A stretch of 54,542 bases of DNA, the filler included, from Jimgerdemannia flammicorona (taxonomy: Eukaryota), in the NCBI GenBank assembly GCA_003990765.1. It is 3 parts of 3 records of this genome, joined end to end, with 100 filler letters (N's around TTAATTAATTAA, not from the genome) between each part and the next. Parts side by side here need not be neighbours in the genome. Positions count along the whole stretch, not along the records: positions 36,431 to 54,542 come from RBNJ01002301.1; 2 more parts are not named here. One strand, written 5' to 3'. Every line of letters begins with the position of its first letter. The first letter of the stretch is position 1. Below the pieces are notes generated by a model. The model saw nothing but the letters and a program-made list of their open reading frames with translations, had not been told where the DNA came from and searched no databases. Below are positions 22,661 to 54,542 of this stretch, in pieces. The position numbers and the translations under genes are program-made.

Positions 22661-22771
22661 GCCAGTATCAAACTCTATTCCAATTGCTTAAAAAAATATA
22701 TTATTGTTAGATATATTATCTGTTATTATAGTTAATATCTAGAGTGAAAGATTAATAATTTGAAATATAAG

Positions 22772-25049: not shown

Positions 25050-25051
<2 letters not shown>

Positions 25052-25090
<39 letters not shown>
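25052..25090. repeat. (TAA)n microsatellite
   Basis: About 13 TAA units. Confidence 0.95.
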
Positions 25091-25093
<3 letters not shown>

Positions 25094-25129
25094 CAAGTTA
25101 TATAAAAAATATACTTATGAAAAAAATAA

Positions 25130-25561
25130 CTCTATCTCTCCTCCTCCTTGATAACTCTTATGATACTTATTAAAATGTGCCCATAAATTTGTTGTTGAAC
25201 TACCAATAGTCTTATATAATATGTACTCTACAGTAGTTATATTTGTTTCAAACATCTTCATTTTCTATATACTTCTTTGTGAACTCCTTCTAAATATCAG
25301 AGTATTCTTTTCCTTTCTCAGACCATAATAAGATCTGTGATGAGACTATACTTGATGTAGCTATACTTACATCTAATACTGAAACTATTACTATAGTATT
25401 CTCTATAGATAGTAGTATTAAAAGTGCATTAGATATGCTTGATTACTTTGAGAGAGTATTGTTATATATTAAACTGTATGTATGAATTACTATTATATTT
25501 AGATTCAAATTAAATTGAATTGATGTCAAATTTGATTTAATTCAATTCATTGAGAGTACTA
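25130..25561 (-). mobile_element. 5' remnant of a hAT-like transposon (BED zinc finger plus terminus)
   Basis: Minus strand YKTIGSSTTNLWAHFNKYH matches the BED-finger GsTsnLxxHLxxxH pattern. Terminus ...TTGAGAGTACTA at 25561 matches the MITE TIR at 32671-33026. Confidence 0.55.
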
Positions 25562-26393
25562 CTCATAGTATTATCTAGATCTAATAGCTATTATTAGATT
25601 AACTTAGTTTGTAGGTCTGTTTTTAGATTATCTATAGTTAGTTCTAAGTCTAAGATTGGTCTTGAATCCAACTTTACAGAAGTGTGTTTTTAATACTATC
25701 TTGACTCAGTAATCTACTGCTATTAGTTGTAATAACTCTCTTTTAATCTATCTCTTATCTGTAGATAATCAGAGTATTTTGAGAAATTACTTAGAGACTT
25801 AGTATATAAGTATATATGTATATCAAGAAGTCTTCAATATGAAAAAATACTTACTTAAAAGTAGTTATAGTAGTAATGTTCTTTCTTAATAACTATAGTT
25901 ATAAGGGTCTTATTTTTTATCTATATACAGACTAAATTTGTCTTATAAAAAGAGATTTTTTTAAGTTTTTGAATTTATATACTAGTTTTTAGTTTTGGTA
26001 AAAGTTAGCTAAACTTCAGAAGTTTAGTCAGAAATACTAAAGTTACTTAGGTGTTATTACTAAAATTTAGAAGAATATATATATAAAAAAAGAACTTGAT
26101 TTTTATATTAAGAACTGAATTAAAACTACTTTATTTTAGATAGAAATACTGAGGATATTTATATAAGTTGGCTAAGTAATAGTTCACAATTTCTGACTAA
26201 GTATGAGTAATTAATTTGATAACTATGAAAGATCTTTATAATTAGAATAACTAAATAGATTGTTAGGTAAATATATATATTACTATAATAGTTACTATAA
26301 TACTATTATAGTATTACTGTAGTATTATATGTTCAAGAATAAGCTAGATATTATTTTCTATATTATTTATATTATTTGTTATATTTTATATAT

Positions 26394-26869
26394 TGTAACA
26401 TAGTGGACACTTACTCTTGAAAGTACGTCAAATTTCTGTATCTTGAAAACTTAACTGTTCTGACTCTCGCAGAGTCTCTTGAAGTTGTACAGGAGGGTGG
26501 GTGAGTTTGAAGTGTATCTGTCCGCAGGCTTACTAGTTTCTTTGCTATCTCTTTGCTTTGAACTATTTCAATCTGAGGTTTATTCACTTGAAGATACTGA
26601 GTTATTTATACAAGTTTGCTAGCTATGAGAGGGTAGCTAAGTAATAAATGAGTCATTTGGACTTTGTTGAAACATTTGGACAATGTCTAAATACTATACT
26701 AAATCGGAGTATTCAATTTGGATAATGTCTAAAATTTAGACAATGTCTAAGGATTTGGACAATGTCGAAATCAAGGACAGCTAACTATAAGGCTATACTA
26801 CTTTGGGACTGGGTACGATCAAGTGTCTATTCCCTATTTCCTTCTTCCAAATTTGGCTGTACCATCACA
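26394..26869 (-). repeat. 3' LTR of element 1
   Basis: TGTAACA...TCACA; matches 31864-32339; internal GACAATGTCTAA repeats. Confidence 0.95.
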
Positions 26870-26871
26870 AC

Positions 26872-27344
26872 TTCCTCCTAAATGGATGGTCTTGTCCCTG
26901 AGGTATCTATTCAAACTCCCAGGCTTCAATGGTCTGTATGGTCTTGTACTGTGCAATTTTCTATATGACTGTTTCCCAATGATATCTCTTTACTTTCTCA
27001 AAGTCAGTGGGAGTTACTCCTCTCAGGTAGTCTATCACTGCTTCATCTTCTCAGAATAACTTGTAGATCCTTTTGGCAATAGTGATCTGTGAGTAGGAGA
27101 GTTGACACTTGGCAATCCAGTATTCCTTGGTCTTTACTGGATCCTGATTGAGCACCTGTCCAAGCTTGAAGTACTCTTGGAATTCTGTGTGATACTGATA
27201 GGCTCTAAAGTGCGAGATCCGAGAGAGATGAGTCTGCACAATACTCTGAATATCCTTATAGTATGCCTCTATGGTTGGAGGCTCAGTGGTGTGCCATTGT
27301 CTTTTGATGGCTCTTTGGGCAGCACTAGTGATCTTGAGTGCCAT
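26872..27344 (-). pseudogene. Accessory ORF of unknown function between pol and the PPT of element 1
   Basis: MALKITS...FQEYFKLGQVL...ITIAKRIYKLF*EDEAVIDYLRGVTPTDFEKV. Similar to the LTR ORFs of elements 2 and 3. Confidence 0.65.
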
Positions 27345-27359
27345 CGCAGTACTTTTATT

Positions 27360-30300
27360 ACTGGCTATGATATTTCTTGAGTCAGTTTTGGTGAATGGTG
27401 GTGGGGATTATTGTGCCTGAGGGTTTTCATAGCCAAAAGGTGGTCTCTTTTATATCTTGCACAAGGTAAGGTCCTTCCCACTTGGGCTCCAGTTTTCATG
27501 ACCATGAAGCTTCTACTATATTCCAATACACTAGGACTTTGTCTCCTATCTTGATAATCTCCAAGGGCTTGTGGGTCTTTTCCGCATTCCTCCATTGTAG
27601 TGTCTGCGCCTTGGTTATGTAATCCTCAGCCTTCTTCCTGATTTGGTATAGTCTCCATATTTCCATGTCCTGTTGATAATCATTTGTATCCATTCTTCCA
27701 GATATTGGGGCATCTTTTGCTGTCCCAGGTATGTGATAATTCCATAGTAGAGCTCCTTATTCATGATTGATTTGTTGGTTGGAGGTAGTTTGAGGTGTCC
27801 GTGAGAGAGTATCTATATTGAAATTTGTTCTTCCAGGGCGGTGCATGATGGTTACATCATAGGCTTGTAACTTCATTATCTATCTGGCATAGATTCCCTT
27901 GGGTTGTCCAGTTGTCAGTAGCTAGGTGAGAGCTGAGTAGTCTGTCTGGATGGTGAAGTATCTTCCGGTCAGATAGTAGTGGAACTTTTCCACAGCCCAG
28001 ATGACTGCAAGGCATTCCAACTTGTAGGACTCATATTCTTTTTCAGCTCCTCGGGTTCCACGGCTAAGATATGCAATGACATACTCTTTTTTGTCTTCTT
28101 TTTGAGCCAGGACTGCTCCTAGTCCCTGTGCACTTGTATCTGTCTGAAGGATAAATTCTTGGGTCCAATTGGGTCGTCTGAGGATGGGTACCTGAGTTAG
28201 TCTGATCTTGAATTCATCAAATGCTTTTTGTTGTCTGCCAGTCCACTGGAACTTGGTATCCTTCTTGTTGAGTTTGTAGATTGGACCTGTGATGTTGGAG
28301 AATCCTCTAATGAACCTGCGATAGTAGGAGGCAAGTCCCATGAAGGCTTGGGCTTCTGTGACAGTAGTGGGCCTTGGGTATGCTACTACCACTTGTATTT
28401 TGAGGGGGTCCGTGTGTGTTCCATCTCGATTGATAATATGGCCAAGATAGAAGATCTCAATTTCTGCAAACTTGCACTTCTTGGGTTTGATATAAAGGCC
28501 ATGTTGTCTTAGTCTCTCTATTATCTACTGTATGTGCTGCAGATGTTCCTCAGGTGTCTTGCTGTAGATGATTACATCATCGACATAGACCATCATCCAT
28601 CTTCCCATGTCATAGCAGAAGATTTTGTTCATCATTTGCTGAAAGCTTGCTGGTGCATTGCACATTCTGAATGGCATTCGTAGGTAGATGTAGGTTCTGT
28701 CTGGGGTGATGAAGGCTGACTTTTCACTTGCCACTGCTGTGAGTCTGATTTGGTGGAATCCTGAGTATAAGTCCAAGGTGCTGTAGTACTGTGCTTCATC
28801 TCCCAGTGTTATAAGAATGTCACTGATGAGCGGCAGTGGTTGGCAATCCTTCTTGGTGACTGCATTGAGCTTTCTGTAGTCAACACAGAGCCTTGGGGCA
28901 AATTCTCCAGATTTGCTTTCTTTTTTTGGGGCTAGTACAACTAGTGAAGACCAGGGGCTGCTAGCTTCTTTGATGATACTGGCTTCTTCCATCTGCTTGA
29001 TTTCTTCTCTGAGCCATTCTTGGTAGGCTGGTGGGACAGATCTTGCCTTCTGGTAAATTGGTTCAGTGTCTCCGGTATCTACCTCATGATAGTAGTGTGG
29101 GGTCTTTCCCTTGATATCCTTGAAACCCGTGACAAGGACATCCTTGAATTTGTGGAGTATTTTCTTGAGTTCCTCCTTGAGTGGAAATTTGTCTCCAATG
29201 GTGTAACTGTGCTTGCTCGTGTTTTCCTCCTTCTTATACTCGAGTTCAGTGATCTTGGTGCTGGCGAATACTCCTCTTCCTGTGGATCTGAATCCTTTCT
29301 TTCCTCTTTTCATTTCCTCCAGATTCTTGACTTCTATGATCCTTGGCTGTATGATTGGAAAGATCAACATCTGTGCCAATCGGTCCTTCTTCTTGACTGG
29401 GAATGGAATTGTAGGATTGTGGTTCCTAGCAATGAGTAGAATTTCTCCAGTATAGTCTGAATCAATGACTCTTCCTTTGATTGTGATTTTGCTTCTAGCC
29501 AGGCTGCTTCTTATCTTGAGAATCCTGACATGATCCTTTGGGATGGTCATCTCTAGTCCAGTTGCGAGTAGGGTGGTTGTCTGGGGTTCGAGTACAGTTT
29601 CTTCTACTGTAGCGATGTCCATTCCAGCTATATTTTCTGACTTGTATTCTAGCAGGACTGCATCAGGGTAGATCTTTCGAATTTTGACCTTGATTTCTTC
29701 TTCATCATCACTGTCCTCCAGGAGGGCTGGTGGTTCATCATCTTCCTCCTTCTTGTCTTCTCTGGTCTGTTTTTTGAGAGCTTCCTGCCTTCTTGCCTGG
29801 TGGATCTTTCTGATTCTGATGGTGCACTGGTAGCAATCATTGATATGCTCCATACAGTACATCCTGATCCCATGAGGACAGACTCCTTGTGGTGTATAGC
29901 CTTCTGCCATCTTTTTGCACCATTCTTCTTCACTCATCCATCCAACTTTCTTCTTCTTTGGAATAGTCACCATATAAGCTCCCTCTTGCTCACTCTCTTC
30001 TTCCTCCATATCGGGCAGGACTCCTTTGTTAACATTAATGGGAATTCATATCTTCTGTCCCTGGTAGGTGATCTGCATCTTCTGAGCATTGAGATCGATT
30101 ATCGTCTTGGCTTTGTGAAGCCATTGATTGCCAATGATGATGTCATAGTTGGTGGCATTGGTTACAATTACATCTACTGAGATTGTTACTCCTCCAATCT
30201 TGATGGGAACATCTCAGATCTTCCCCAGAGGTGTGGCTCTTGTACCATCGGCTGTGACAAATACTAGCTTAGTTGCTTCTTCCACATCTCAACCTAGGCA

Positions 30301-31743
30301 GTCTGCTGCCTTCTTACTGAGGAGACATCCTCTTGCTCCTGTGTCAATGATGGCTTCAAAGACTCAATCCTCAATTTGGCATGTTGCATAAGCAGAGGTT
30401 TTGCGATTGTCCTCACTTTCTTCTTCTGAGTCCTCTTGAACATTATTGGTCTCAGTTATCTTCCATCCTTGTTCCTTGGTTGTTTCAGCAAGTCCAAACC
30501 TCATTTGCTATCTGAATGTTGGGATTTCTGCGAGCTGACCAAAGGTTGCATTGACCTTTTGTTGACTGAGATCCTTGAAGATATCATACTTGAAGGTCTT
30601 GGTCTTGCGAAGCTTCTTTTCTTTTTCTCCTTCACTGGCTGGAGTGGTTCCTCAGATGATATCTTGAACTGCTTGCTCTAGCTCAATATCTTGGTCCATC
30701 TCTTTGGCTTGGCTTTCTGTATTAGTTTCCATCCGCTTTTCCACTGGGTTCTTCTTGGGTCTTCCTGGCAGTCTCTTGTAGGGTTCTTTGCGAGCATCCT
30801 TCTTGGTGGTCTGAGCAGGATAGGCCTCCCATTTCTCTTCATCGGATTCTCCAATTTCTTCAAAGGTGATTGTATTGGCCTGCTCCTTATTTCATATGGC
30901 ATTGCTTGGTTGAGCCTTGCATTTGGTTTCACTCATACATTCATAGGAGTAGTGGCCTTCTTCTCTGCAGCTGTAGTAGGTACCTTTCTTCTTGTCTGAG
31001 GTGGCGGCAAACTTCTGAACAGGGCAGCAATCTCTTCCTCAGATTTCCTTTACCATATCTCCCAGGTGGGTGGTCATTTCAGCAAACCTTTTGGTGAGTT
31101 CCTCCATAGGGTCACTGTTCTTTTGCTGCTCTGTAGCTTTTGGCTGAGGTGTGTTTCGATTGATCATTGTGGTGGGGATCATACTGGTTGCCTTGGGTGC
31201 CTCGATTCTGACTCCTGTAACTCTCTCTATTATATCATCTTGTGGGTGTCTGGCTATCCAGTATCGCTGAGCATAGGTGACCTTTTGTGGCAGATCCAGA
31301 ATCACTAGTGATGAGCAGATGGCCATGGCTATTTCTGGATGGACTCCTTTCATGAAGGTTGCTTCAGCTACTTGATCTCAGATAGCAGCAGCATAATCTG
31401 CAAGAATTATCTGATATTGAATTCTGGTATAGAATGTGTTTGGATCCTCACTCATTCCTTGGCACATTGTATTGAGCTGATCCTTCAGGGCTTGCTTGAT
31501 CTCATCTGTGTAATATGTGTTTCGGAGCCAGGTCTTCTGTGCCATCAGTATGGCATCTGTATTATTTCCTGCATGGGTTGTGGCTGTGAATACTGCTCTG
31601 GCAGGGCCTCGTAGACTGAAGGGCATGAGGGCTACTTGCTGTGCTGCTGTCAGGGTCCTTACAGCAGTATACTGCTCGAAATCATCAATGAAGGTGATGA
31701 TTGATTTATCTGAGATATATCTATGAAATACTGGTAGTCTCAT
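27360..31743 (-). pseudogene. gag-pol of element 1 (disrupted)
   Basis: ORF pieces 31378-31743 (gag), decayed knuckle YYSCREEGHYSYEC, protease at ~30330-30365, 28525-30009 (dUTPase-RT), 27922-28392 (RNase H), integrase C-terminus at 27496-27660. Confidence 0.9.
29278..29694 (-). other. dUTPase domain within pol of element 1
   Basis: All five motifs: AGMD, RSSLA, VIDSDYTGEI, DRLAQ, RGKKGFRSTG. Confidence 0.9.
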
Positions 31744-31863
31744 ATCTATTTTGTCTGGGTATTGGGGCTTGGTTTGTATGATTGTTCGAGTGGTGGCAGT
31801 TGTTTGTTGTTCAGCTTAAAAGTGAGGGATTCATCTTGAATCACCAGCCAATGGGCACCAAGT

Positions 31864-32339
31864 TGTAACATAGCAGACGCTTACTCTTGAAAGTATGTCA
31901 GATTTCTGTATCTTGAAAACTTGACTATTCTGACTCTTGCAGAGTCTTTTGAAGTTGTATAGGAGGGTGGGTGAGTTCGAAGTGTATCTGCCCGCAGGCT
32001 TACTAGTTCCTTTGCTATCTCTTTGCTTTGAACTATTTCGATCTGAGGTTTATTCACTCGAAGATACTGGGTTATTTATATAAGTTTGCTAGCTATGAGA
32101 GGGTGGCTAAGTAATAAATGAGTCATTTGGACTTTGTCGAAACATTTGGACAATGTCTAAATGCTATACTAAATTGGGGTATTCGATTTGGATAATGTCT
32201 AAAATTTAGACAATGTCTAAGGATTTAGACAATGTCGAAATTGAGGACTGCTAACTATAAGGCTATACTACTTTGGGACTGAGTGCGATCAAGTGTCTAT
32301 TCCCTATTTCCTTCTTCCAAATTTGGCTGTACTGTCACA
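31864..32339 (-). repeat. 5' LTR of element 1
   Basis: Same length and sequence as 26394-26869 apart from mostly transition differences. Confidence 0.95.
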
Positions 32340-32670
32340 ATATTACTTATTTATAATATCATTACTAGGTTATATAATTATTCATCATATCTTCTTTATT
32401 GTCACATCTTATCTATTCACTCATTCTATTATAAATAATATAAAAGTATGTATATCTATATATCAGATCTAACAATATCAGAACTGAGTAAGAAATAGTT
32501 TTCTAAATAGTAAAAAAAGTCTGAGGTAAAAGAAAACCTCCCAAACTAATTAATAAAAAGCAAAAAGAATTCAAGATAGAGTGAATAAAGAACTAATATG
32601 TGAACTCTCTCTCAAAAGGACTAATATATAGACTAAGGTCTAAAAAGATCCCAATTCTACTATCTGAGGC

Positions 32671-33026
32671 TAGTACTCTTAATAAATCAAATTGAATCAA
32701 ATTTGATCTAAATTTGATTCAATTTAATTAAATTAAAGATCTAATTCAATTTAATTCAAAGCTAATTTAATTTGAAATTTAATTTAAATCCTATTTTTCA
32801 AAATATAATAACCTAACAAATATATATCCAAATTTAATAGTCTTTAGCTTATTAGATTTCTCTATATAAGGTAAATCTAATAAGCTAAAGATTATTAAAT
32901 TTAAATTTGAATATATTTTTATTGAGTTATTACATTTCTAAAAATAGAATTCAAATCAAACTCTCAATTTGATTTAAATTTAATTCAATTTAAGTAACTT
33001 TCAATTTGATTTATTTGAGAGCACTA
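32671..33026. mobile_element. hAT-like MITE with central palindrome
   Basis: TIRs TAGTACTCTTAATAAATCAAATTGA / TCAATTTGATTTATTTGAGAGCACTA; ~30-bp inverted arms at ~32829-32902. No clean TSD. Confidence 0.7.

Positions 33027-34838: not shown

Positions 34839-34839
<1 letters not shown>

Positions 34840-34898
<59 letters not shown>
34840..34898 (+). repeat. Poly-A tract
   Basis: About 59 A. Confidence 0.95.
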
Positions 34899-34902
<4 letters not shown>

Positions 34903-36079
34903 CAGAAACTTACAAAATTCAATTATATATTTTCTAACCCATTAGAGGAGAGCTCTCAGAAAAATAAAAATGCCATAGCTTAAACAATCTCTTATTGTAA
35001 AGACTCTAAATATTTTCTAAAGTGTATCAATTCCTTACTCCATATTGATCACATAAACTAGTGAGCCTAAAAACTTTTCCAAAACATCACATTCTAAGGG
35101 TTTTCCAAAATCTAACCTGGGACCAACTCCACCAGATGAAAGGATTGAGGGAATTGCTAAAGCAGCCTCTAACTTTCATCTTAAAGCAGTCAGTAATTCA
35201 CTTGGATTGAAATCAGCAGGAATAAAATTATCTTCTATTTTGCAACAATGTACTAGAAGAACCTGGTAGTGCAAAGAGAGGAATTGTCAGAACAGAAAAA
35301 AAAAAAAACACAACTGATAAGGGATGCTGAGAGATATGAGAGAATGCTGGAGAATATTAAAGACTGACTGTAAGAGATACTTCTCCAAAGAGAGAGGATA
35401 TCATTGGTATAAATTGGGAGTTACCTTTCCAACTGACCTTCAGTTATTCTTACAACATCCCCACTATGGCAAGATAGGTGAGTCTGACTGCTAGAAGTCC
35501 TCCTCCTGAGAGTGAATACTAGAGGCTAGCTGGAAGAGGTTCTCTGCCAAAGCAAGAGTATGTAGCCAGTGTAAATCAGGAGATATATCTCTGATTGACC
35601 TTCTTAAGATACTAAAGACCAGCTATAAGAGGTTCTCCTCCAGAGAGAGAGTACATCTTCAGTGCAAATTGAGAGACACCCTCCCAAATAGTCTTCTGAA
35701 TGAAATACTGAAGACAGACTACAAGAAGTCCTCTTCAGAAATAAGAGAGTATATTTTTGATATAGATCAGAGGATACTCTCCCAACTAGTCTTTGTGTTA
35801 TTAGTATATTATCATGGCAAACATTAGCTTGGCAAACATCAGCTTGGCAAATATTAACTTAGTAAACATCATTATGGGGAATAAATATAACATACTAAAA
35901 GCAGTGAGACAAGGTGAGGTAAGGTGAGACAGAGTGAGGCAGATTAGAGAATATACTATGAAGTATCTTGAATAGAGAGTGCAGATGGTCTTTTCAAGTA
36001 GTGAGGTATATCAGGGGTCAGAATGGAGTATAGACAGTCTTTTCAAGTGGTGATATATATGAAAGATGAGCTGCAAGAA

Positions 36080-36330: not shown

Positions 36331-36430
36331 NNNNNNNNNNNNNNNNNNNNNNNNNNNNNNNNNNNNNNNNNNNNTTAATTAATTAANNNNNNNNNNNNNN
36401 NNNNNNNNNNNNNNNNNNNNNNNNNNNNNN
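36331..36430. other. Artificial contig spacer
   Basis: 44 N + TTAATTAATTAA + 44 N. Confidence 0.98.
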
Positions 36431-36706: not shown

Positions 36707-38885
36707 TCACTCTTCCTCGCCTTCCCAACCCTCCACCAGGACCTCGGGTTCTTTACGTTTCTCCTTAATCGAAAAACTCCACCACCACGTCCCCACAGCC
36801 ATAAAACTCAAGAACGCCCACATAAAATGTACTCTAACGATCCATGGGAATTTCTCTTCGTCCAACGCCCAGCTATACAGAGTCCCGCATAGAGCCGGAC
36901 CGATGGCCCTTATTCCGCTAGCCATGCACTGCCCGAACCCGTTAATGGTTCCGAGAGCGTTGAGGGAAGGCGCTGAATTGGCCACGAGCATTATGGAGCT
37001 GGTGTACACGACGACGCTGCACATGACCTTGGCCGCCAGGCATACCATGAGTCCTACCCAGACGTAGGGACCCTTGAGATGGCGCAGAAATCCCTGACCA
37101 AAGTAGAGTGGGATGTAGACGGAGAGACCGAAGCGAAAAACGGTGAGTGTTCCCCAACGACTATGCAAAAAAGGCCAGAGGAGCAGTTGCATGAAAAGAG
37201 TCATTACACCGCCGAGAGAGAGGGAGATGCCGATGTCTTTGGAGGTGAAACCGAGACCACCATCGGAGGGAGGAGTTGCGGCCCAGATGGAATAAAGGCC
37301 GTCGTACATGATGGTTTGGAAGCAGACGAGGACGTAGGCGGTAATTGTGATGACAACAGGGCGCGTCAGCACCGAGCAGAGGGTTGGTTTGCTGGGTGTG
37401 ATGGTGGTGGGGTCGAGGGTGAGGGTAGAGGAGGGGAGAGGGGAACGGAGGGAGGGCGGGGATGGCTGGATGGTTGGGGTGGAGGGGATGGATATGGATG
37501 GGGGCCGGCGAGCTGAATGGGCAGGAAAGGTGTGATATTCAGCAGGCACGCCGGCGCCGGAGGGCGTCGCGGTTCCGGACATCAGAGGCCGTCGTTCTGC
37601 GACCTTGTCATCTTCCTCACTTTCATCCTCACCGTCCGAATTCCTACTCTTCATACCCAACGTCTCCTCCAGAAAAAAGATACCAAACACCAGTCCGACA
37701 GTGCATAAACTTGCACCGACGAAACATGGCAAGAAGTATGGGTATGTCTCAAGCAAGCTCGTAATCCATCCTCTACCGCCAAACACGGCGGGGTACTTCT
37801 CGACGGGATGGTTGAGGAAGCCGCCAAGGAAGGGACCGACGATGTATCCTATGCCGGATAAGAGTGGCATAAGGGAGAAGGCATGGGCGCGCTGATTGGA
37901 CGAGTGATCAACTGTCAGCTCAGCGATCATGGACTTGAAAGACCCGAGGTTGCCGTTCAGCAGACCGCCGAGCAATCGCGAGGCGAGCGCCCAGGTATAC
38001 GTGGGCGATAAGCCAAAAAGGAGGATTGAGATGATCGTGCCGAGCAAGCCTATGAGTATGACGGGGCGACGACCTACAAATTGGTAGGTGGGGATTTAAA
38101 GGAGGGTTGAGTGATATTGTTTAAAGGTATGAGGAGTTGTTTCGTTGAACAGATCATTGAGAGTCGAGGGGGAGAAACCATACCAATTCGGTCTGATATA
38201 TATCCCCACGGAAGACCTAGACAGTTGATGAGTTAAGAGGATATTTTAGCAAGGAATAGGAATGGGGTCAGTTCCGGCTAAACCTAATTATAAGGTTTGT
38301 CTCGACTGACGAAAATCAATGCAACGATTACAAATCAAATCGTGATCTCTTCCGATCCCTCGCATATCGTTTCTATTCCTCCCATGGCATCATTTTGGTC
38401 GCATGATTTCATTAGATAAGTAACAGTTTTCCGGATGTTCCATGAAACTCACCTGAAAAGAATTGGGCGGCGGCGATACTGGACGCCATGTAACCGACGT
38501 AGTACCCTATCTTATTGAGGTCGTCGGTGATGTTGAAGTCTCTCACCATCTGCGTGAAAAATAATGACGGGAGGTGACGGTTATTAAATCCAATAAGATT
38601 AAGCGAAATAAAAAAATAAAAAAAAATAAAAAAGAAAGAAAAGAAAAAAACCTCCCAGCCAAATTAATACACAACAGGAGTTACTTACAAAATAGATAAA
38701 CGGTAATAGGAGGGTCATGCAGATGGGTTCCTGGAATGAGGTGGTTGGTGGTTTCGGTGAGGACGACGAAGAGCTCGCGAAACGAGGTCACGCAGGGTGG
38801 TTATACGTACAGGGAAATGACAAACACACAGAGTGAACAGCTGCCTTGTGGGGAAGGGCAGATCTCTTGTTCCAGCAGTCGTCAT
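36707..38885 (-). CDS. Major facilitator superfamily transporter (DHA1/TetA/ZIFL-like), 537 aa, 5 exons
   Basis: Exons 38885-38811, 38730-38689, 38549-38453, 38216-38184, 38073-36707 total 1614 nt in frame. MFS motif A WGYISDRIGRRPVI, RLLGGLLNGN, GPFLGGFL, YPYFLPC, multiple TM helices. Confidence 0.92.
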
Positions 38886-43559: not shown

Positions 43560-44321
43560 TATAGAGTTGTCCATAAGTCTCATTTCTTATATATATAAGT
43601 CAAACTTTGCCTTTGAAAGAACTTTAGTCAATAAATCTGTCATCATATACTTCATTAGAGTGTATTCTAGATATATAGTGCTGTTTTCCACATATTCTTA
43701 TATGAAATAATATTATATATCAATATTTTTTATTCTTGCATAATATATAGAGTTCTTTACTATAGTAATTATCGATTAATTATCTTATTGGAGTAGTATA
43801 GAGTGCCATTGATTATATTCTATGTAACTCTTTTAGCAGTTTTCAAAGTTATATAGCTTCCTTTATTACTATTGACAATGCTTGATACTCTACTTGTATA
43901 AAGGATATTACCACTGAGGATTTCTTGTATATTTGCTACAAAATAGCTCCATTTTTGCTAATTTTGAAGAGATATCTGGTCATAGACTATCTGTCATTCA
44001 GGTTACTGATCTAATTAGTATTACATATATCAGATAATCTTATAGCACTCCTACTTAATCTGTTATTACTTGAATATAGTATATAGTATACTATATCTTT
44101 GATATATCTTAATTATCATCTAATGTGAATTATTATATCAGAATGAGTACTATATCACTTTGTTGACTATATATGATATATCAGACCTTATCTTGAGTAT
44201 AAGATATATAAGAGATCCCACAACTTACTGATAGGAGATATTATTATTTTTAAATATAGTATTACTAAACTTCTTAGTCTTACAGATATCTCTATAGGGA
44301 CTCTGATAGGTTTGTATTTAC
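43560..44321 (-). mobile_element. Ty1/Copia relic, RT C-terminus and RNase H
   Basis: VGSLIYL..RSDI; DN*SII..KN..ARIKNIDI*YYFI*E..MMTDLLTK (deaminated DNQSA..RTKHIDI..ADLLTK). Confidence 0.8.
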
Positions 44322-45776
44322 TGTTACGTAGTGGTCGCTGAGTCCTTCAAATATGTCAGATTCTCTTCAAGGTATATCTCTTAGACTAACTCAAGTTGTT
44401 ATAAGCAAGTTCTTATTGGAGTGCCTTCTCAAGATCTTATAGTCCTCTAACTTCTTATCTTTAACTATCTTGTTATCTCTTAGATTGCTTGCAAGGAAGT
44501 GTGTGTATTGCACTGAGAGGAACTGACTTTATTTCAGAGGAAATAAGAGAGGTATTTATACAAAATATAATTCAATGGTTGCTAAGATATAAAGCTAAAT
44601 ATAAATTCCAATAACTAAAACTACTAAGTTCTAGAGCTGGCATTATTTAGTGTCACATCAAAATACTGGTGCTGGAATAATTTTGCATTACCTCAGAATG
44701 CCGGTGCTAGTATTATCCAATATAACAAAGAACTTAGAGCAGAAAGTTCAAGATTATAGGGGCTTCATCATCATCATCACTGAAGGAGATGAGATCCATG
44801 AATTTATCCTTTTCACATACTTCGATGTTATGTGGGATGACGTCATCGATGACATCATCATGTTTGGCTGTGGTGGGGAAATCGGGGACAAGGTCTGGAG
44901 CTCTCCAGTCTATGAGGTTCTCTTCCACAAAATAAGGAACAAATGTGGGGTCTTGGGGAGATCTAACCCAGATGCTTGGGCCTTAGAATACTGAGATCAA
45001 TTCTTGCAGGAATTGATCTGGGTTGTCCTGAAGAATAGGGTGCCAGAAGTCTTCTACTTCTTTGCTATTGAGGGTGATAGTGGACTGGGCTTCTGTAGCC
45101 ATCCTGGCTTCTAGTGCATTGATACGGTAGGATGATAGGTCTCTGAAATCTGAGACTCTAACATACTCCAAGTTGGGGATCGACCATGGTGCATGTCTGA
45201 AGATCTGATAGATCTTCTTAGCTGTCCTTATTTTGCATATATCCATGGGAGTGGCATCTTGTAGCTATTGGGTGCTGGCCTGTGGGAACTCCCAGCAGAG
45301 GAGGTTTCCTATTTCATACTCCTGCCATATTTGGAGGCATTTGGTAGCAATGGTGATCCTTGTTTCCATTTCACGGCAGTAGAGGATAAAGTGATAAGGG
45401 TCTGCAGTACTCAGGTTAACACTAGGAGTCCTTCTTGAGTGGGTCCTTATAGCTCTTCTGATGTCTTGAAACATCCTTTCCTCGACTGAGATACCTTGGT
45501 GATTCCTTGACCTTGAGGTTTGGCAGGCGGCAGGTATTTTGTTTGTGGTATATCTTTGAGCTATTTTGGGATTGGTGGTTCTTGTTGGTTGCTGCTACTG
45601 CAATTCCTTGATTCTTCTTTTATATTCTTCAGGATGCTTGTGCTGTGGTCACAATGACTCACAGTTGGTCATCATTGCTTATCTCATATGCCATATGATC
45701 TTGTGCTCCGATCTGATGGCTTATAAGGAAAGGCTATCTCCTGTGCTGATGTCATCATTCTGGAGTCACTGTTACA
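44322..45776 (-). repeat. 3' LTR of element 2 (1455 bp)
   Basis: TGTTAC...GTTACA; matches 51480-52933. Confidence 0.95.
44734..45537 (-). pseudogene. LTR-encoded accessory ORF, 3' LTR copy
   Basis: ORF-track pieces 45265-45474, 44983-45246 and 44734-44928 share one frame. Start mutated to ATA; two internal stops. Confidence 0.8.
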
Positions 45777-46129
45777 TCTTCCTCCTGAATAAGAATCTTC
45801 CTGAGTATCCTTATTCATTGGTCCAGTCCTGAAAAATTTGCTGATCCCATAACCTCTAGCAAGGGGTCAAAAACTGGTATTTATGGGCTAGCATCTTCTC
45901 TTTGTATTTTGGCATGATGGTGAAGGGTCGCTCCCTTCATATAGAGCAAGGGCCTGATTCTGATCTTGACCAATCAGTTGATAGTTCGAACTCCTCTGAC
46001 TGTGAAAGTCTCATGGATGAGTAGTTGCCAGTGCTATATCCCTTAGAGAATGGTCCAGACAGATAGCCTGCTAGTCACGGGATATGCTATTATGATTCAC
46101 AGACTAGAATCTCATGGGCGGTCATCACA

Positions 46130-49100
46130 TTTTGCTTCTTTTGTATAGGTTCATAGTACTTCTTGAGTCTATTCCTATGTACCATGGTAGGCAGTATGGT
46201 CCCTGAGATTTTTCTAAGCCAGAAGGTAGTTTTCTTGATATCTTGCACATAGAAGGGTCCTTCCCATTTGGGCTCCAGTTTTTATGACCATGAGGCTTCT
46301 ATCATATTTCAATACAGTAGAACCTTTTCTCCAATTCAGATAGGTTCTAGGGCCTTGTGATTCTTTTCCACATTCTTCCTTGTCAGTGCTTGTGACTTGG
46401 TGATGTAATCTTCAGCCTTCTTCCTAATTTGGTGTAGTCTCCGGATTTCTGCATCAACCCATCTCCAAGTTAGGTCTAGATTTATGACTGAGGTTCTATT
46501 AGAATCTTCTTCTCTGAAGAGCAGCTCTCTTGGGGTAAAATGTGTACTCTGTGACCATATATCTCATAGAACAGAGAGGGCAGTTGGGAGATAGTTATCC
46601 CAATTATCATATATCTCTGAGATCTTTGCTAGGATGTTCTTGAGGGTCTTATTGGTTCTCTCTGTCTGTCCATTTTCTTGAGGGTGGTATGTAGTGGTCT
46701 CGATGTACTGGATCTTGTATTTCTGATACATTATCTTGTGGAATCTATTGACAAATTCTGTGCCATGGTCTGTTGTGATTTGCTTTGGTGTCTTGTAGTG
46801 GCAGATGATTTCTCAGTGTAGGAAATCGGCTATAGAGAGAGCATTGGCTTCTTGTAATGCTCCTGTCTCTATCTATTTAGTGAAGAGGTCTACAATAACT
46901 ATAATATAGTGGTTTCCTGATAGTGTTACTGGTAGTGGTCCAATGATATCAATTGTGATGTGGTGGAAGGGGATAGGTTCAATTCTTGATGATCTGGGTG
47001 CCTGGTCTTGCTGATCTTGTTTCTGTTTTTGGCACTTGTCACACTCTTTGACAAATTGGCACAGGTCTTCTTCCATCTTGGACCACCACATGGTTCTTCT
47101 TGCCTTGTCATATGTGTTGGTTCCTCCTAAGTGTCCTTGCTCATGTACTTCCTTCATTACTTGATACTTCTTGTATTCAGGTATTACTAGCTTTCCTTCT
47201 TTCCTGAGTATAGTGTTGTCTAATTCAAAATGTTTCCAAGTCTGGTTGATGATGGTGATTGTCCAGGGTTTGAGATGGTTGGGCATCTTCTGCTGCTCAA
47301 GATAGCTAATTAATCCATAGTATAGCTCCTTATTCATGTTGAATAGTATTGATAGAGATGTTTCAGGGTATCCTTGAGAGTGCATCGGTATTGGGGTTGG
47401 TCTTTCCTGGGCAGTGCTTGACAGTACAGTCATATTCTTGCAGTCTGTAGATCCATCTGACATATATTCCTTTGGGGTTCAGAGTGTGAAATAGCCAGAC
47501 AAGAGCAGAATGGTCTGTTTGAATAGTGAAGTGTTTTCCAACTAGGTAGTAGTGGAACTTGTCTACTGCCCAAACTACTGTTAAGCATTCAAGCTTGCAT
47601 GACTCATAGTTCTGTTCTGCTCCACAGGTACCTCAGCTTACATAGGAGATGACATATTCATGTCTATCTTTCTTCTGAGCTAGGACCACTCCAAGTCCTA
47701 TAGCACTCACGTCTGTCTGCAGGATGAATTCTAGGGTCCAGTCTGATCTTCTGAGGATGGGTGCTTGGGTCAACCTGGTCTTGAGTTCATTGAAGGTTTC
47801 TTGGCACTCCTTGGTCTATTTGAATTTGGTCTCCTTCTTCAGTAGCTCATAGATAGGTGCTGTAATGTTAGAGTATCCTTTGATGAATCTTCTGTAGTAG
47901 CTGGCCAGTCCAAGAAAGGCATGAACTTCTGTAGTTGTTCTGGGTCTTGGGTAGGCTGCAACAGCCTCGATCTTCATGGGGTCTGTGTGGATTCTGGTCT
48001 GGTTGATGAGGTGTCCTAGGTAGGCGATTTCTTGAGCTGCAAACTTGCATTTCTTGGGCTTGATGTAGAGGCCATGCTCCTTGAGCCTCTTGAGGGCTAG
48101 CTGTATGTGATTGACATATTCCTGTGCAGTGTTGCTGAAGATGATCACATCATCAACATAGACAAAAAGCCATTTTCCAATCTCATTGCCGAAGACTCTG
48201 TTCATCATTCACTGGAAACTTGCTGGGGTATTGCACATTCCAAATGGCATTCACAGATAGATATAGGTGGCATCAGGTGTGATGAAGGCTGATTTCTCAC
48301 TGGCATCTTGAGTGAGACCGATCTGATGGAAGTCTGAGAACAGATCCAAGGTAGTGTAGTATTTGGCTTCACTTCCAAGGGTGGTAAGGATTTCTTGAAT
48401 ATTCAGTAAGGGCTGCCTATCCTTCTTGGTGATGGCATTGAGTTTCCTGTAGTCAATACAGAGTCTTGGTGCAAACTCTCCAGGCTTGCTTCCTTTCTTC
48501 AGGACAAGGATAATGGGTGAGGCCCAGGGGCTGATAGCTTGCTTGATGATTCCAGCTTCTTCTATTTCCTTGAGTTCGGCTTGCAGCCATTCTCTGTAGG
48601 CAGGTGGTATGGGTCTGGCTTTCTGATAGATAGGCTTGGTATCACCAGTGTCAACTTCATGGTGGTACTTGGGTTCTTGATTATGGATATCCCTAAAGTC
48701 TGTAGCAAGTACTTCTTTATTCTGGTACAGAATCTTGAGAAGTTGTTCCTCTAGGGGAAAGTTTTCTCCAATGGTATATGTGTGCTTGTTCTGATCCTTG
48801 TCTTTCTTGTGCTCAAGTTCAGTAATCTTGGTGGTGGCATAGGCTCCTCTTCCAGTAGATCCAAAGCTTTGTTCTCCTCTCTTGGTCTTGATAAGTTCAG
48901 TGGCCTCTATGATCTTGGGCTTCTTGATTTCGTGGATCAGCATCTGGCCAATCCTGTCATGCTTCTTGACTTCGAAGGGAGTGGTGTGGTTGTGATTTCT
49001 GACTATAAGAAAAATCTCACCAGTGTAATCAGGGTCAATTACTCCTCCTTTAACTGAGATTTCACTTTTGGCCAGACTGCTCCTGGTCTTGATAATTCTG

Positions 49101-51359
49101 ACATGGTTTTCTGGTAGCTTGACTCCTATTCCAGTGCCAAGTAGGGTGGTGGTCTGTGTTTTGAGGGTAGCATCTTGGATGCTGGCAAGGTCCATTCCTA
49201 TGGCTCCTTCAGTCTTGTATTCTGGGATCTTGGCTTTAGGGTAAAACTTCTTGACCTTGAGGGTAATGTCTGATTCTTGTTCCTCCTCATCATCACTGTC
49301 AGCTTGAAGCTCTGGGGGCTGGTCATCTTCTTCAGCTTTCCTTTTTGCTTCAGCAGCTTCTTGCTCATATTTCTGTTGGCAGATTTTCCTGACTTCACTG
49401 ATATAGGCCCAGCAGTCATTCAGGTGTTCAGAGCAGTACATTCTAGTACCATGGGGGCATCTTCCTTGAGGGGCATACCCATCGATGATCTTGTTATACC
49501 ACTGCTCATCTGTGAGCTTGGGTGTCTTGTTCTTGTTCTTGTTCTTATTCACTGAGTGCATGAAGACCTCTGTGTCTTCTTCATCTCCTTCCTCCATGTC
49601 TGGCAGGACTCCTTTGTGGACATTGATAGAAACTCATACCTTTCTTCCTCTGTAGTTGATCTGCATCTTCTGAGCATTGAGGTCAATGATGGCCTTGGCC
49701 TTGTGAAGCTATTGGTTGCCAATGAGGATGTCATAGTTGGTGGCACTTGTAATAATCACATCTACTGGGATGATAGCTCCTCCTATCTTGATGGGGACTT
49801 CTTGGATTTTGCTAAGGGGGGTAGCTTGTGTACCATCTGCTGTGATATAGACCATTTGGTGGACTCTTCAATGTCCCAACCTAGGCAGTCAATTGCCTTC
49901 TTACTCATAAGGCATCCTCCAGCACCAGTATCAATGATGGCATCAAAGATACAGTCTTCGATCTGGCAGGGGGTATAGGCTGATGTCTTGCGCTGGTCTT
50001 CAGATTCTTCACCTGAGTTCTCAGATTCTTCTTGTACATTGTGAGCTTCTACAATCTTGTACTCTTGATTCTTGACAGTAGTTGCAAGTTCTACTCTTAA
50101 CTGCTGTCTGAAGGCAGGGACTTCAGCTAGCTGCCTAAAAGTGACATTGATCTTCTATTCCTTGAAGTCCTTGTAGATGTCATACTGGTGGATCTTGGTC
50201 TTACGCAGCTTCTATTCCTTCTTGCTCTCGCTTTCTCCTGAGACTGGAGTAGTGCCTTCGATAATTTGGTTGGCAGCTTCATCTAACTCCATGTCTTGAT
50301 CAATCTCCTCGTATTGGGTCTTGCTTTGAATAGTGATAGCTGGAGTCTTTTTTGGTCTTCCAACTGGCTTGCTGTTGCTCTTCTTGTCATAGGGCTTGGA
50401 CCAGGTTCTGGTTCCTTCGGTAGTAGGGTAGAATTCGAGCCCCTCATAGTATTCTTCATCATCAGTGTCACTGATCTCCTCAATGACTACTGTATTAGTT
50501 TGTTCTCTAGTTCTGCTAGCATTACTTGGTTGGGCTTTGCGTCTTGTTTTGGTCATGCAACTCTTTGCATAGTGGCCTTCTTCTCTACATCTGAAGCATA
50601 TGATATTGCATTCTTCTGTAGCAACTGCAAATCTCTGCACTGGTCTCCTGTTGGTGCTTCAGACTTCTCTACAATATCACCAAGGTGTGCAGTCATCTTG
50701 GCAAACTGCTTGGCAAGTTCTTCCACTGGGTCAGCTTTGGCTGTCTTGGGGGTAGGTGGGGTTGGTTGTCTGTTTACAACTGTGGCAGGTAAGATACTAG
50801 TTGGCTTTGATGGCTCTATCTTTATGCCAGTTATTTTCTCCATTGAGTGTTCAGCAGAGTGTCTGGCAGTCCAATATCTCTGTGCAAAGACCACTTTCTG
50901 ATCAAGGGTCAGTGCAGCTGGGGTAGACCAGATTGCTAGGGCAATTTCAGAGTGAACTCCTTTGAGGAATGTTGAATCTGCTATTTGTTCCTTGAAGGCA
51001 TCATCATAGCCAGCCAAGACAATCTGGTGGCAGATTTGGGTATAGAATAAGTTGGGATCTTCACTAAGTCCATGGCAGATAGTATTGATTTGATCCTTAA
51101 GAGCTTGCTTGATCTCTTCAGTATAATATGTTGTTCTGAGGAAGGTCTTCATGTTGGCAAGTTTGACTGCATCTGCACCAGCAATGGTGGCTGCATTAAA
51201 CTTGTTTCTGGCAGGTCCTCTGAGGCTGACTGGTAGAAGAGCCAATTGAGCATCCACTCCAAGAGCTCATATGGTGGCAAATTGTTCAAAGTCTTCAATG
51301 AAGGTCAGGATTGACTCTTCAGTAGTATATCTATAGAATGTGGGGGAGTGTATTTCCAT
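46130..51359 (-). pseudogene. gag-pol of element 2 (disrupted)
   Basis: gag 50553-51359, CCHC at ~50557-50600, protease at ~49910-49950, 48251-49597 dUTPase-RT, 47816-48208 RT, 46873-47463 integrase N-terminus. Confidence 0.92.
48851..49261 (-). other. dUTPase domain within pol of element 2
   Basis: IGMDL, RSSLA, GGVIDPDYTGEI, DRIGQ, RGEQSFGSTG. Confidence 0.92.
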
Positions 51360-51890
51360 CTTGTCTTGAATTCTTACAGGGGTGACTCTTGTAGTCAGGG
51401 TAGTTGTTGTGGGGGTTGTTTGTTTTTCAGCTTGAAAGTGAGGGATTCATCTTGAATCACCAGCCAATGGGCACCAAGTTGTCACATAGTGGTCACTGAG
51501 TCCTTCAAATATGCCAGATTCTCTTCAAGGTGTATCTCTTAGACTAACTCAAGTTGTTATAAGCAAGTTCTTATTGGAGTACCTTCCCAAGGTCTTATAG
51601 TCCTCAAACTTCTTATCTTTAACTATCTTGTTATCTCTTAGATTGCTTACAAGGAAGTGTGTATATTGCACTGAGAGGAACTGACTTTATTTCAGAGGAA
51701 ATAAGAGAGGTATTTATACAAAATATAATTCAATGGTTGCTTAGATATAAAGCTAAATATAAATTCCATAACTAAAACTACTAAGTTCCAGAGCTGGCAT
51801 TATTTAGTGTCACATCAAAATACCAGTGCTGGAATAATTTCACATCACCTCAGAATGCCGGTGCTGGCATTATCCAGTGTAACAAAGAAC

Positions 51891-52691
51891 TTAGAGCAGA
51901 AAGTTCAGGATTATGGGGGCTTCATCATCATCATCACTGAAGGAGATGAGATCCACAAATTCATCATTTTCACATGCTTTGATGTTATGCAGGATGATAT
52001 CATCGATGACGTCATCATGTTTGACTGTGGTGGGGAAATCAGGGACAAGGTCTGGAGCTCTCCAGTCTATGAGGTTCTCTTCCACAAAATAAGGAACAAA
52101 AGTGGGGTCTTGGGGAGATCTAACCTGGATGCTTGGGCCATGGAATACTGAGATCAATCCTTACAGGAATTGATCTGGGTTGTCCTGAAGGATAGGGTGC
52201 CAGAAGTCTTCTACTTCTTCACTGTTGAGAGTGATAGTGGACTGGACTTCTGTAGCCACCCTGGCTTCTAGTGCATTGATACAGCGGGATGATAGGTCTC
52301 TGAAATCTGAGACTCTAACATACTCCAAGTTGGAAATTGACCATGGTGCATGCCTGAAGATCTGATGGATCTTAGCTGTCCTTGTTTCATATATATCCAT
52401 GGAAGTGACATCTTGTAGCTCTTGGGTGCTGGCCTGTGGGAACTCCCAGCAGAGGTGGTTTCCTATTTCATACTTCTGCTATATTTGGAGGCATTCGGTA
52501 GTAATGGTGATCCTTGTTTCCATTTCACAGCAGTAGGGAATAAAGTGATAAGGGTCTGCAGTACCCAGGTAAACACTAGGAGTCCTTCTTGAGCGGGTCC
52601 TCATGGCTCTTCTGATGTCTTGGAACATCCTTTCCTCGACTGAGATACCTTGGTGATTTCTTGACCTTGAGGTTTGGTGGGTGGCAGGCAT
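51891..52691 (-). pseudogene. LTR-encoded accessory ORF (~266 aa), 5' LTR copy
   Basis: Pieces 52479-52691, 52161-52400 and 51891-52157 share one frame. Its two stops fall at different sites from those of the other LTR. Confidence 0.8.
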
Positions 52692-52771
52692 TTTGTTTGT
52701 GGTAAGTCTTTGAGCTATTTTGGGATTAGTGGTTCTTGTTGGTTGCTGCTACTGCGGTTTCTTGATCCTTC

Positions 52772-52778
52772 TTTTATA
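52772..52778 (-). promoter_or_regulatory. TATA-like box upstream of the LTR ORF
   Basis: TATAAAA about 80 bp before the ATG at 52691, conserved in the other LTR. Distinct from TATAAAT (~51712-51718) and AATAAA (~51686-51691) further downstream. Confidence 0.5.
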
Positions 52779-52933
52779 TTCTTCAAAATGCTTGTGCTGT
52801 GGTCACAATGACTCACAGTTGATCATCATTACTCATCTCATATGCCATATGATCTTCTTGTGCTCCGATCTGGTGGCTTGTAAGGAAAGGCTGTCTCCTG
52901 TGCTGATGTCATTATTCTGGGGTCACTGTTACA

Positions 52934-53576
52934 TTACTTATGCTAAATCATTCAAGTATAGTCTGAATATATGTAGCTTATGATAAATATATAGTATATT
53001 TGTTCATATTACATATAATTGATATTTCAAGAAGATAGAATACATCACTCATAGTTATCATCTTGAATTTCTAGTATAGTATTATCTTTACATTATTGAT
53101 CTTTCACCATTCTAATCAGAATAATATTATTAATCTAAATTCTTAGGTATACTATTTTTGAGAATATATATCAAATATATATATATATATCAGCTTTACA
53201 ATACTTAAATTTATGTCTAAGAGGTATTTGTTGATTTTTTGATTCCACAGTTTTACTGCTAATTTGATACTTTAGAGACCTTTATATAATTTGTATATAA
53301 GCTCCTTTTGCTTATCATTGTATAGTTTGTATCCTTATGGTTGCTAAATATATATATAGCTCTATTATTCAAGAAGACTGTCTTAATATCTATTTAGTAA
53401 ATTTCATAGTCAAATTAAGCTCTGATTACAAGAAGTATTCTAGATAAAGTAAACTTGAATACTGGAGAAAAGGTCTTATTATAGTCTATGCTATATCTTT
53501 GTAAATATTTCTTTACCACAAATCAAGCCTTATATTCCTCTATACTCCCATTACTATTATGTTTAATTTTATATAT
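52934..53576 (-). mobile_element. Ty1/Copia relic, RT N-terminal part, continuing 43560-44321
   Basis: YKA*FVVK..IDYNKTFSPV, QIDIKTVFL..YI*QP*GY, YLS*ATYIQTILE*F. Confidence 0.8.
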
Positions 53577-54542
53577 TGTGACATCTACAATTGACCCTGT
53601 CCAAATTCGGAGTACCCTGTGACCACAAGATCAGATGACATAATGGCGTGACAATCAAATAGACAGCCTGACCCATTAGGTGATCATCCCAAAAGGAGAC
53701 AAGAAGATCCGAGCCAAAATGAAGACCACGTTATTTAAGGAACCCTGCTTCGCCTCAGAGATCGGCACCAAAGAACCAAGTACCCACCACACAATACCTC
53801 CCATTCACCAAACCAACCAGACCTCCCGCTGCTCTACCCCTTTGCCTGGCCCAAAGACCCTGATCTTTGAAGCTATCAAGAAGGCCATCTGGTGCCCAGA
53901 TACTTCCGAACACTTGAACTTCTATACTGAGGACCTTGGACACTTCATCAACTACCGGTATATAATGACCCAATAGCTCAAAGACACTACCGAATGAATG
54001 ACCCTCTGGCATGACTATGAAATTAGATACCGCCTTTGCAATGAGACTCAAGAAGGAGACCAGGAAGACCTCATTGCCGAAATGTTAACCACCAGTTGGC
54101 TAATCAAGAGAGCCCTCCGTGTCCATCAAATCTTCTGCCATATTCCCTGGACTATAGCACACTTGCAAGGAGTAATAGCTGGCAGCCTCTCCCGCCTTTC
54201 AACTGAAGATGCTGACTGGATAGAATCTGAAGTAGCCAATGCTATTGGCAGCAACTGCATCACCATAGGAAGCCAACAAACTGAACCTACTCAGCCAGGT
54301 TTTCACACCACCCCACTCTGAGACAACCATCAAGGTCACCTAATGAGTCTCATGGAGATATTTGAAGGACCGCCCATCACTATAGAAATACCTGTTGGAG
54401 CTACTCCAACCACCTACCACCCTGTCAGCCACAATTCACACCTCATCATTTGGGAACCGAATCAAGAGGAAGCCCAAGAAGTTCCTGTCTTTAAAGAGGA
54501 AACCCAAGAACTCCAAGACCCTGCCCCTGAAGAAACCCCCTC
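53577..54542 (+). mobile_element. Probable LTR of a third related Gypsy element carrying the accessory ORF, cut by the window end
   Basis: Begins TGTGACA, interrupting the Copia RT. One frame from ~53794 (ATA, IPPIHQT vs MPATHQT) reads through three stops and is similar along its length to the element 2 LTR ORF. No partner LTR is visible. Confidence 0.7.

Follow-up and report, generated by a model that had tools for sequence, protein, structure and literature searches.

The DNA analysed here (the window, 54,542 nt in full length, composed of three parts of the Jimgerdemannia flammicorona assembly GCA_003990765.1 joined end to end) contains, in the part derived from RBNJ01002301.1, a Ty3/Gypsy long terminal repeat (LTR) retrotransposon, termed element 2, both LTRs of which carry a protein-coding frame, termed the LTR gene. 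Element 2 occupies positions 44322-52933 on the minus strand and is structurally complete and dead. Its LTR pair is 92.5% identical over 1454/1458 nt with TG and CA ends, a 4-bp target-site duplication (GTAA) lies at both flanks (52934-52937 and 44318-44321), and a primer-binding site and a polypurine tract are present. Domains identified with Pfam follow the Ty3/Gypsy order of gag (CCHC), protease, reverse transcriptase (RT), RNase H and integrase, with a dUTPase inserted between protease and RT, and the internal frames are all broken by many stops and frame changes.

An earlier note on this DNA, made from the sequence alone, had described one sense-strand frame in both 1.45-kb LTRs (52691-51891 and 45537-44734), with two stops per copy at different codons and hence an open two-LTR consensus. 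The same frame of ~267 codons was recovered here, and each of the four stops was found to face a sense codon at the same place in the opposite LTR. Between the two copies there is a single indel, of 3 nt and in frame, and no frameshift; absent from the earlier description was the loss of the ATG, now ATA, in the 3' LTR copy. The frame contains 2 stops; the remaining sense frames have 8 and 21, the antisense frames 9-25, and two or fewer stops in any frame were obtained in 1 of 5000 dinucleotide shuffles. The signals described around the frame were likewise found, namely an upstream TATA (TATAAAAG, 87 nt before the ATG), a second TATA downstream (TATAAATA, 51717-51710) with AATAAA behind it (51691-51686), the layout being repeated in the 3' LTR, and an acidic C-terminal tail (isoelectric point, pI, of ~4 for the last 70 residues).

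Intact relatives of 271-342 aa were found in public metagenome protein sets. A sequence search of a 5.8-billion protein set with the X-read translation returned 6 proteins, four of them partial; the other two, to which the 5' LTR copy is 70-82% identical, are P0003 (247 aa, 82%) and the full-length P0004 (271 aa, 71%). Cluster look-up added P0010 and P0012, both full-length at 323 aa, a profile search returned 11 proteins, among them P0020 and P0022, intact at 342 and 325 aa, and an exhaustive search of 1.84 billion representatives returned 5 proteins of 138-342 aa, all of them family members. No fused or longer form of the family was found among these representatives or in a search for longer homologues. 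In a 21-row alignment the family falls into four subfamilies, with identities of 23-61% between and 56-98% within them; frames of 271-342 codons would not stay uninterrupted at such divergence without selection, despite a bias of the protein sets toward intact copies. At the DNA level, a metagenome scan confirmed 1 locus, designated L001, among 80 pattern matches, and a scan of viral contigs confirmed 0 of 72.

Selection on the frame was assessed by comparing the window copy with L001 using the Nei-Gojobori method. The proportion of synonymous differences was 0.67 and that of nonsynonymous differences 0.27, giving a ratio of nonsynonymous to synonymous substitution (dN/dS) of 0.19-0.20, which is rough because dS is saturated; differences by codon position numbered 89/63/128. 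Between the two LTRs of element 2, whose divergence accrued after insertion, the corresponding differences numbered 25/15/23 and the ratio was 0.49. The contrast between a low dN/dS across subfamilies and 0.49 within a dead LTR pair is clear even so. A dN/dS of about 1 between subfamilies had been named beforehand as an outcome that would speak against a gene, and the value obtained is ~0.2.

Further copies were examined by aligning Logan contigs of four runs (X1, X4, X5 and X10; among them a soil metagenome, two runs coded as organism A and a single run coded as organism B) to positions 51300-53100 at 85% likeness. The family is abundant in all four, with 2128, 243, 195 and 52 pieces aligned. 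At codon 71, where the window copy has a stop, other copies carry a sense codon (Trp) at depths of 654/751, 86/86, 25/30 and 835/835 in the four runs. Among the 40 differences listed of 244, both of the 2 indels inside the frame are of 3 nt, compared with 7 of 8 outside it that are of 1 nt, and by our own count 14 of the 27 substitutions that fall within the frame affect a third codon position. In other copies the LTR-to-purine-tract junction appears as a loose end at 52934 (6 contigs in X1, 3 in X5).

Differences between the window copy and these other copies are overwhelmingly transitions; in X1 they comprise A>G 47, G>A 30, C>T 25 and T>C 21, with transversions at 9. Of the four stops that the LTR pair carries, three likewise differ by a G/A or C/T transition from the sense codon of other copies. 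The transition bias and the stop changes are compatible with a deamination-type decay of a silenced repeat.

From the above, the LTRs very probably hold a real protein gene under selection. Its base composition (A 0.30-0.33; GC content at third codon positions, GC3, 0.47-0.50) resembles that of gag and pol, compared with A 0.18 and GC3 0.65 in a host major facilitator superfamily (MFS) gene of the window. This element-like composition, together with the lack of a longer or host-context homologue in the searches described above, indicates a long-standing resident of the element and not a recent capture. The gene would be kept by selection on the element lineage, not on the host, and its copies in dead elements would decay with the element.

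That the frame lies wholly inside the LTR is seen directly; its assignment to the U3 (unique 3') region is made through a TATA-to-AATAAA module. In element 2, TATAAATA and AATAAA lie ~175 and ~200 nt past the stop codon of the frame, and the module, with a spacing of 26-27 nt, is common to element 2, L001 (1218/1244) and a sister Ty3/Gypsy element of the window, termed element 1. The latter is 68% identical to element 2 over 4.3 kb at the nucleotide level, has an identical primer-binding site and includes dUTPase, RT and RNase H; no trace of the LTR gene was found in it by tblastn with the family proteins, from which it follows that the gene was gained or lost within one lineage. The only TATA of element 1 (32080) is followed by AATAAA 26 nt on (32054). 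Because the spacing is identical in this element without the open reading frame (ORF), the downstream module is read as the regular promoter of the LTR together with its poly(A) signal, and we infer in turn that the gene and the upstream TATAAAAG lie in U3. The order in L001 is the same, namely upstream TATA (TATA1), ORF, downstream TATA (TATA2) and AATAAA.

A third copy of the gene, belonging to subfamily D, lies on the plus strand in an LTR-like unit that is separated from the 5' LTR of element 2, head to head, by 645 AT-rich bases (52934-53578). The copy was detected by tblastn at ~28-32% identity (E 1e-10 to 7e-20), is 74-76% identical to P0021, P0022 and P0023 of subfamily D, of which P0022 is an intact form of 325 aa, and is free of frameshifts, although it has 3 stops and its start position reads ATA. 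It starts 215 nt inside its unit, and TATTTAAG stands 62 nt before the start position. As neither pol nor a purine tract precedes the unit, it represents either a solo LTR or a 5' LTR. The gene-in-LTR layout thus recurs in a different element family. Coordinates of all these features are collected in the table.

Table. Positions of element 2, the LTR gene, its candidate signals and related units in the window.
Feature	Positions	Strand	Details
LTR gene, 5' LTR copy	51891..52691	-	266 codons + stop; ATG present; pseudogene, stops at codons 71 (TAG) and 177 (TAA)
LTR gene, 3' LTR copy	44734..45537	-	pseudogene; ATA for ATG; stops at codons 91 (TAG) and 185 (TAA)
5' LTR, element 2	51480..52933	-	1454 nt, TG...CA; direct repeat of 44322-45776; primer-binding site next
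3' LTR, element 2	44322..45776	-	1455 nt; polypurine tract before, GTAA duplication after
Primer-binding site TGGTGCCCATTGGCTGG	51460..51476	-	TGG-initiated (TGGTGCCC...), 3 nt past 5' LTR; identical string in element 1
Polypurine tract AGGAGGAAGA	45777..45786	-	directly before 3' LTR
Degraded internal region	45777..51479	-	gag (zinc knuckle), protease, dUTPase, RT, RNase H, integrase (Pfam)
TATA1 TATAAAAG	52771..52778	-	candidate LTR-gene promoter, putative function; 87 nt before ATG; 3' LTR motif 45617-45624
TATA2 TATAAATA	51710..51717	-	predicted genomic-RNA promoter; 3' LTR copy 44553-44560
AATAAA poly(A) signal	51686..51691	-	3' LTR copy 44528-44533
Third LTR-like unit, start	53579..54542	+	begins TGTGAC; TATTTAAG at 53732-53739; continues past window end
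Third LTR-gene copy, subfamily D	53794..54540	+	249 codons in one frame, cut by window end
Element 1, sister Ty3/Gypsy	26393..32340	-	478-nt LTRs 26393-26870 and 31863-32340; LTR gene absent

The upstream TATAAAAG is the candidate promoter from which the LTR gene would be transcribed. The leader that joins TATA1 to the ORF has 0 ATGs, compared with 6 in the 155 nt upstream of TATA1, and the motif and the ATG-free leader are conserved in the subfamily of L001 (B), where GAATATAAAAG is identical at L001 positions 1-11 and the ACAAACAAA(A)TG context is also identical, despite saturated synonymous sites. L001 itself (1-1345) begins exactly at GAATATAAAAG, continues for ~95 nt beyond AATAAA and lacks a poly(A) tail. 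On these features, a promoter belonging to the LTR gene itself is given slightly better than even odds. The LTR would be laid out as a start, ~155 nt, TATAAAAG, a leader of ~80 nt free of ATGs, an ORF of 270-340 codons and ~175 nt, past which would follow the TATAAATA promoter, AATAAA 26-27 nt behind it, and then U5. A transcript from the upstream TATA would read the ORF and be polyadenylated at the AATAAA of the same LTR, so that any LTR could yield an mRNA of ~1.05-1.1 kb. Genomic RNA would start ~25-30 nt after TATA2, at or just past AATAAA, and would thereby skip the poly(A) signal of the 5' LTR; it would carry the gene at its 3' end only, and reverse transcription would copy the gene to both ends.

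The predicted protein has a basic N-terminus (pI 10-12 for the first 60 residues in 3 of 4 subfamilies) and an acidic tail in which clusters of F/L/I/W stand among D/E over the last 70 residues. The best-conserved segment, WNPxLQDNPDQ(F/W)L...F(Q/E)GPxI, lies in a low-confidence stretch of both structure models, which suggests a partner-binding motif; no catalytic-looking pattern was found among the invariant columns of the family alignment. AlphaFold models were of modest quality, with predicted local distance difference test (pLDDT) scores of 52 for P0004 and 58 for P0010, the latter model having a helical core at residues 14-165 (scores 60-96) and a disordered tail. No transmembrane segment or signal-like N-terminus was found, the maximum 19-residue Kyte-Doolittle mean being 1.07. 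Taken together, the protein would consist of a basic N-terminus, a helical core of ~150 residues and a long acidic-hydrophobic tail, and would be soluble.

Database comparisons were carried out at the levels of domain, profile and fold. Pfam searches with the LTR-gene pieces and 5 intact homologues gave nothing above chance at E<=1; the sole row at that threshold, PF23304 on P0010, was at chance level (E 0.23; 12 bits, with the cut-off at 27). The profile and fold searches that the earlier note had proposed, of the HHpred and Foldseek type, also ended without a match: a sequence-profile search of the PDB returned no relative, and Foldseek with the two models against the PDB and with BFVD as target returned no match at E<=0.001. 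Matches in the ESM Atlas (scores up to 0.83, TM-scores up to 0.33) were noise. A wide VIA-align search gave a best Z of 5.4, below the level of helical noise, and, for residues ~54-115, returned scattered DNA-binding domains of the helix-turn-helix type (Z 2.6-3.7), which are a lead only. The earlier note had also named as a refuting outcome that the frame simply duplicates part of gag or pol, which is excluded by three comparisons: hhalign of the family profile against gag gave a probability of 0.05% (E 0.82), tblastn of the window with 9 family proteins gave matches at the three LTR sites only and none in the internal region, and no Pfam retroelement domain was detected in the family. The protein is a new family, neither gag nor pol. 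Judged from its composition, our best guess is a soluble, probably nuclear, trans-acting regulator or adaptor; of the roles it may have, activator of the LTR promoter or anti-silencing factor would be the likeliest, as a more tentative proposal.

Several retroelement systems resemble this arrangement in part. The sag gene of mouse mammary tumour virus (MMTV) is a superantigen gene in U3 of a betaretrovirus LTR, and Sag is a type II membrane glycoprotein. The LTR gene likewise has its frame inside U3, here a predicted U3, and so is duplicated at both ends of the provirus; unlike Sag, its protein lacks any hydrophobic segment and is without similarity in sequence or fold, and it does not class with Sag-type proteins. 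Also unlike MMTV, the host element is a Ty3/Gypsy element without env, and a candidate TATA box stands inside the predicted U3. In foamy viruses, tas/bel1 is served by an internal promoter, and Tas binds DNA and acts as an activator, its activation domain being acidic and C-terminal; the bel genes reach into U3, as nef of the human and simian immunodeficiency viruses (HIV/SIV) overlaps it. Like tas and nef, the LTR gene is an accessory gene of a retroelement at the 3' end that reaches into U3, here a predicted U3, although in this case the LTR encloses a whole candidate transcription unit and not part of an ORF. In its layout of a basic N-terminus, a helical core and a tail both acidic and hydrophobic, the protein resembles Tas, and an activator role may be proposed by analogy, but no homology to Tas was detected in Pfam or BFVD, and the model has a pLDDT of 58. 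VANC proteins are anti-silencing proteins of the Arabidopsis VANDAL transposons, which are DNA transposons; the likeness would lie only in the proposed role of a trans-acting accessory protein for an element family, the proteins being unrelated.

Among LTR retrotransposons, brtn of Boty is reportedly an additional ORF. Further additional ORFs, in the available part of PMC7264820, include Grande gene23, those of RIRE2 and Retand, and env-like ORFs, located on either side of gag-pol in the internal region. As described there, they are, like the LTR gene, conserved within lineages, of unknown function and free of database homologues, and some have their own promoter and some have nuclear products. 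As an additional ORF, the LTR gene is an extra frame present in many copies (four runs) and kept between four subfamilies at a dN/dS of 0.2; unlike those of PMC7264820, so far as its available text goes, it lies inside both LTRs, and the internal region has no copy. That text has 0 occurrences of 'in the LTR', 'within the LTR' and 'inside the LTR'. For an LTR-borne ORF, the full-text literature, with subscription papers and supplements outside its scope, gave MMTV only. The LTR gene would thus be an additional ORF inside an LTR with a candidate promoter, for which no LTR-retrotransposon precedent was found in print.

We place the probability that gene, U3 layout and own promoter hold together at about 0.6, and several points weigh against this reading. 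L001 is the single intact DNA relative obtained, and as it shows no poly(A) past AATAAA it is DNA or read-through, not the short mRNA. No RNA run is on record with the stretch, and contigs give no transcript start, end or level; gaps in the cover of X10, possibly an RNA run, between the stop codon and TATA2 are, for the same reason, unreadable as transcript ends. The transcription start sites, and hence the U3/R borders, are predicted positions. The protein sets consist of called ORFs and so favour intact copies. Function is read from composition alone, for a protein with no Pfam, PDB-sequence or fold match and models of pLDDT 52-58. Lastly, every copy of the LTR gene in the window is broken. 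The proposal of an accessory gene in the LTR stands as regards conservation across at least four subfamilies and purifying selection, and does not extend to the three window copies, all of which are pseudogenes; expression of protein from these copies in dead elements is not likely.

Alternative explanations differ from this reading either in how the gene is transcribed or in whether it is a gene of the element at all. A real gene could lack a promoter of its own and be expressed from a spliced subgenomic mRNA initiated at the 5' LTR promoter, as are MMTV sag and HIV nef, for which its position 3' of pol in the genomic RNA is suitable, as is a CTAAT that resembles a branch point and has TAG behind it, located in the 5' LTR ~35 nt ahead of the ATG. 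This string is altered in the 3' LTR and absent from L001, which is mildly unfavourable, and it is TATAAAAG and the ATG-free leader that are conserved instead; the four runs list no spliced joint onto the leader, although contigs are weak for joints. We regard splicing as unlikely. TATA1 could also be the promoter of the genomic RNA, with the ORF as first cistron in a long R/leader, of the ORF0 type, and TATA2 as a relic. TATA1 is indeed conserved, the first AUG after it is that of the ORF, and an ORF0 upstream of gag-pol is described for rice Retrosat2 in the accessible portion of PMC3485330. The TATA2-AATAAA spacing of 26-27 nt is, however, kept in element 2, L001 and element 1, where it involves the only TATA, and a genomic RNA started at TATA1 would meet the AATAAA of the 5' LTR, need read-through and have an R of ~1.05 kb. 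This arrangement is considered improbable.

It could further be argued that the intact members are host genes, domesticated or captured, and that the copies in LTRs stem from isolated transductions and have no role in the element, as the protein is without known function and the homologues come solely from anonymous short contigs. Against this, the frame stands in LTR context in three window units and in L001, thousands of X1 contig pieces were aligned, with LTR-to-purine-tract junctions, the composition is that of the element and unlike that of the host gene, and neither the 1.84 billion representatives nor the longer-homologue search contained a longer homologue or one in another context; host origin is accordingly held to be very improbable. 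The remaining explanation, a chance or relic open frame that is non-coding, would account for the stops in both window copies and for the lack of a recognised domain or fold. So few stops arose in 1 of 5000 shuffles, intact frames of 271-342 aa persist in four subfamilies down to 23-31% identity, dN/dS is 0.2 with an excess of third-position changes, and the listed indels inside the frame (within the 40 of 244) are all in-frame; a non-coding frame is strongly disfavoured.

Additional features of the window were as follows. The dUTPase (PF00692) between protease and RT was identified on the minus strand in both element 2 (48251-49633, E 5e-26) and element 1 (28525-30045, E 2e-22). The same position between protease and RT is given for fungal Ty3/Gypsy elements of Postia (PosPlaTy3-5), Phanerochaete and Tuber (Tmt1) in PMC2864245, as far as its available text extends, and elements 1 and 2 are alike in this respect; an LTR-borne ORF is unmentioned in that text. 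The Ty3/Gypsy lineage of element 2 is probably fungal. AT-rich blocks (22001-26000 and 32001-36000, GC 0.24-0.32) flank element 1, compared with 0.42-0.52 in the bodies of genes and elements. Host-like genes include the MFS transporter at 36707-38095 (minus strand; a 462-codon open stretch, PF07690 at 8e-20, Atlas neighbours mostly fungal) and a class-C seven-transmembrane receptor fragment at 14711-15247 (plus strand; PF00003, 7e-23). A dispersed repeat family (2838-4806, 18202-18501) has 300-nt copies, 67-82% identical, at 2838, 4081 and 18202, together with copies of 218 nt at 3360 and 4589. The N runs at 18116-18215 and 36331-36430 each consist of a pair of 44-base runs with 12 bases between and were taken as masked or unknown sequence. 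No Rfam family was found in 44000-54542 and no tRNA gene in the window by ARAGORN; a scan for bacterial-type promoters and terminators gave chance-level results and is irrelevant here.

As a speculative extension, every LTR, solo LTRs included, would be a self-contained gene (TATA, ORF and poly(A) signal) for a new trans-acting factor that switches on the family promoter or disarms host silencing, and would be an independent counterpart of the regulatory genes of complex retroviruses. If this is true, dispersed LTRs would together supply helper protein to all members of the family. The placing of a gene in the predicted U3 is in addition a case of convergent evolution with complex retroviruses, which have genes in or over that region. 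LTRs are usually treated as non-coding and masked before gene calling, so that part of the proteome may be hidden; an LTR can hold a gene beyond its control signals, and every LTR, solo ones too, may be a gene copy. The family provides a tractable retrotransposon accessory protein without known homologue and is directly testable, since intact natural copies exist, and such accessory proteins may be a source of new mechanisms of element-host conflict, including promoter activation, anti-silencing and RNA export.

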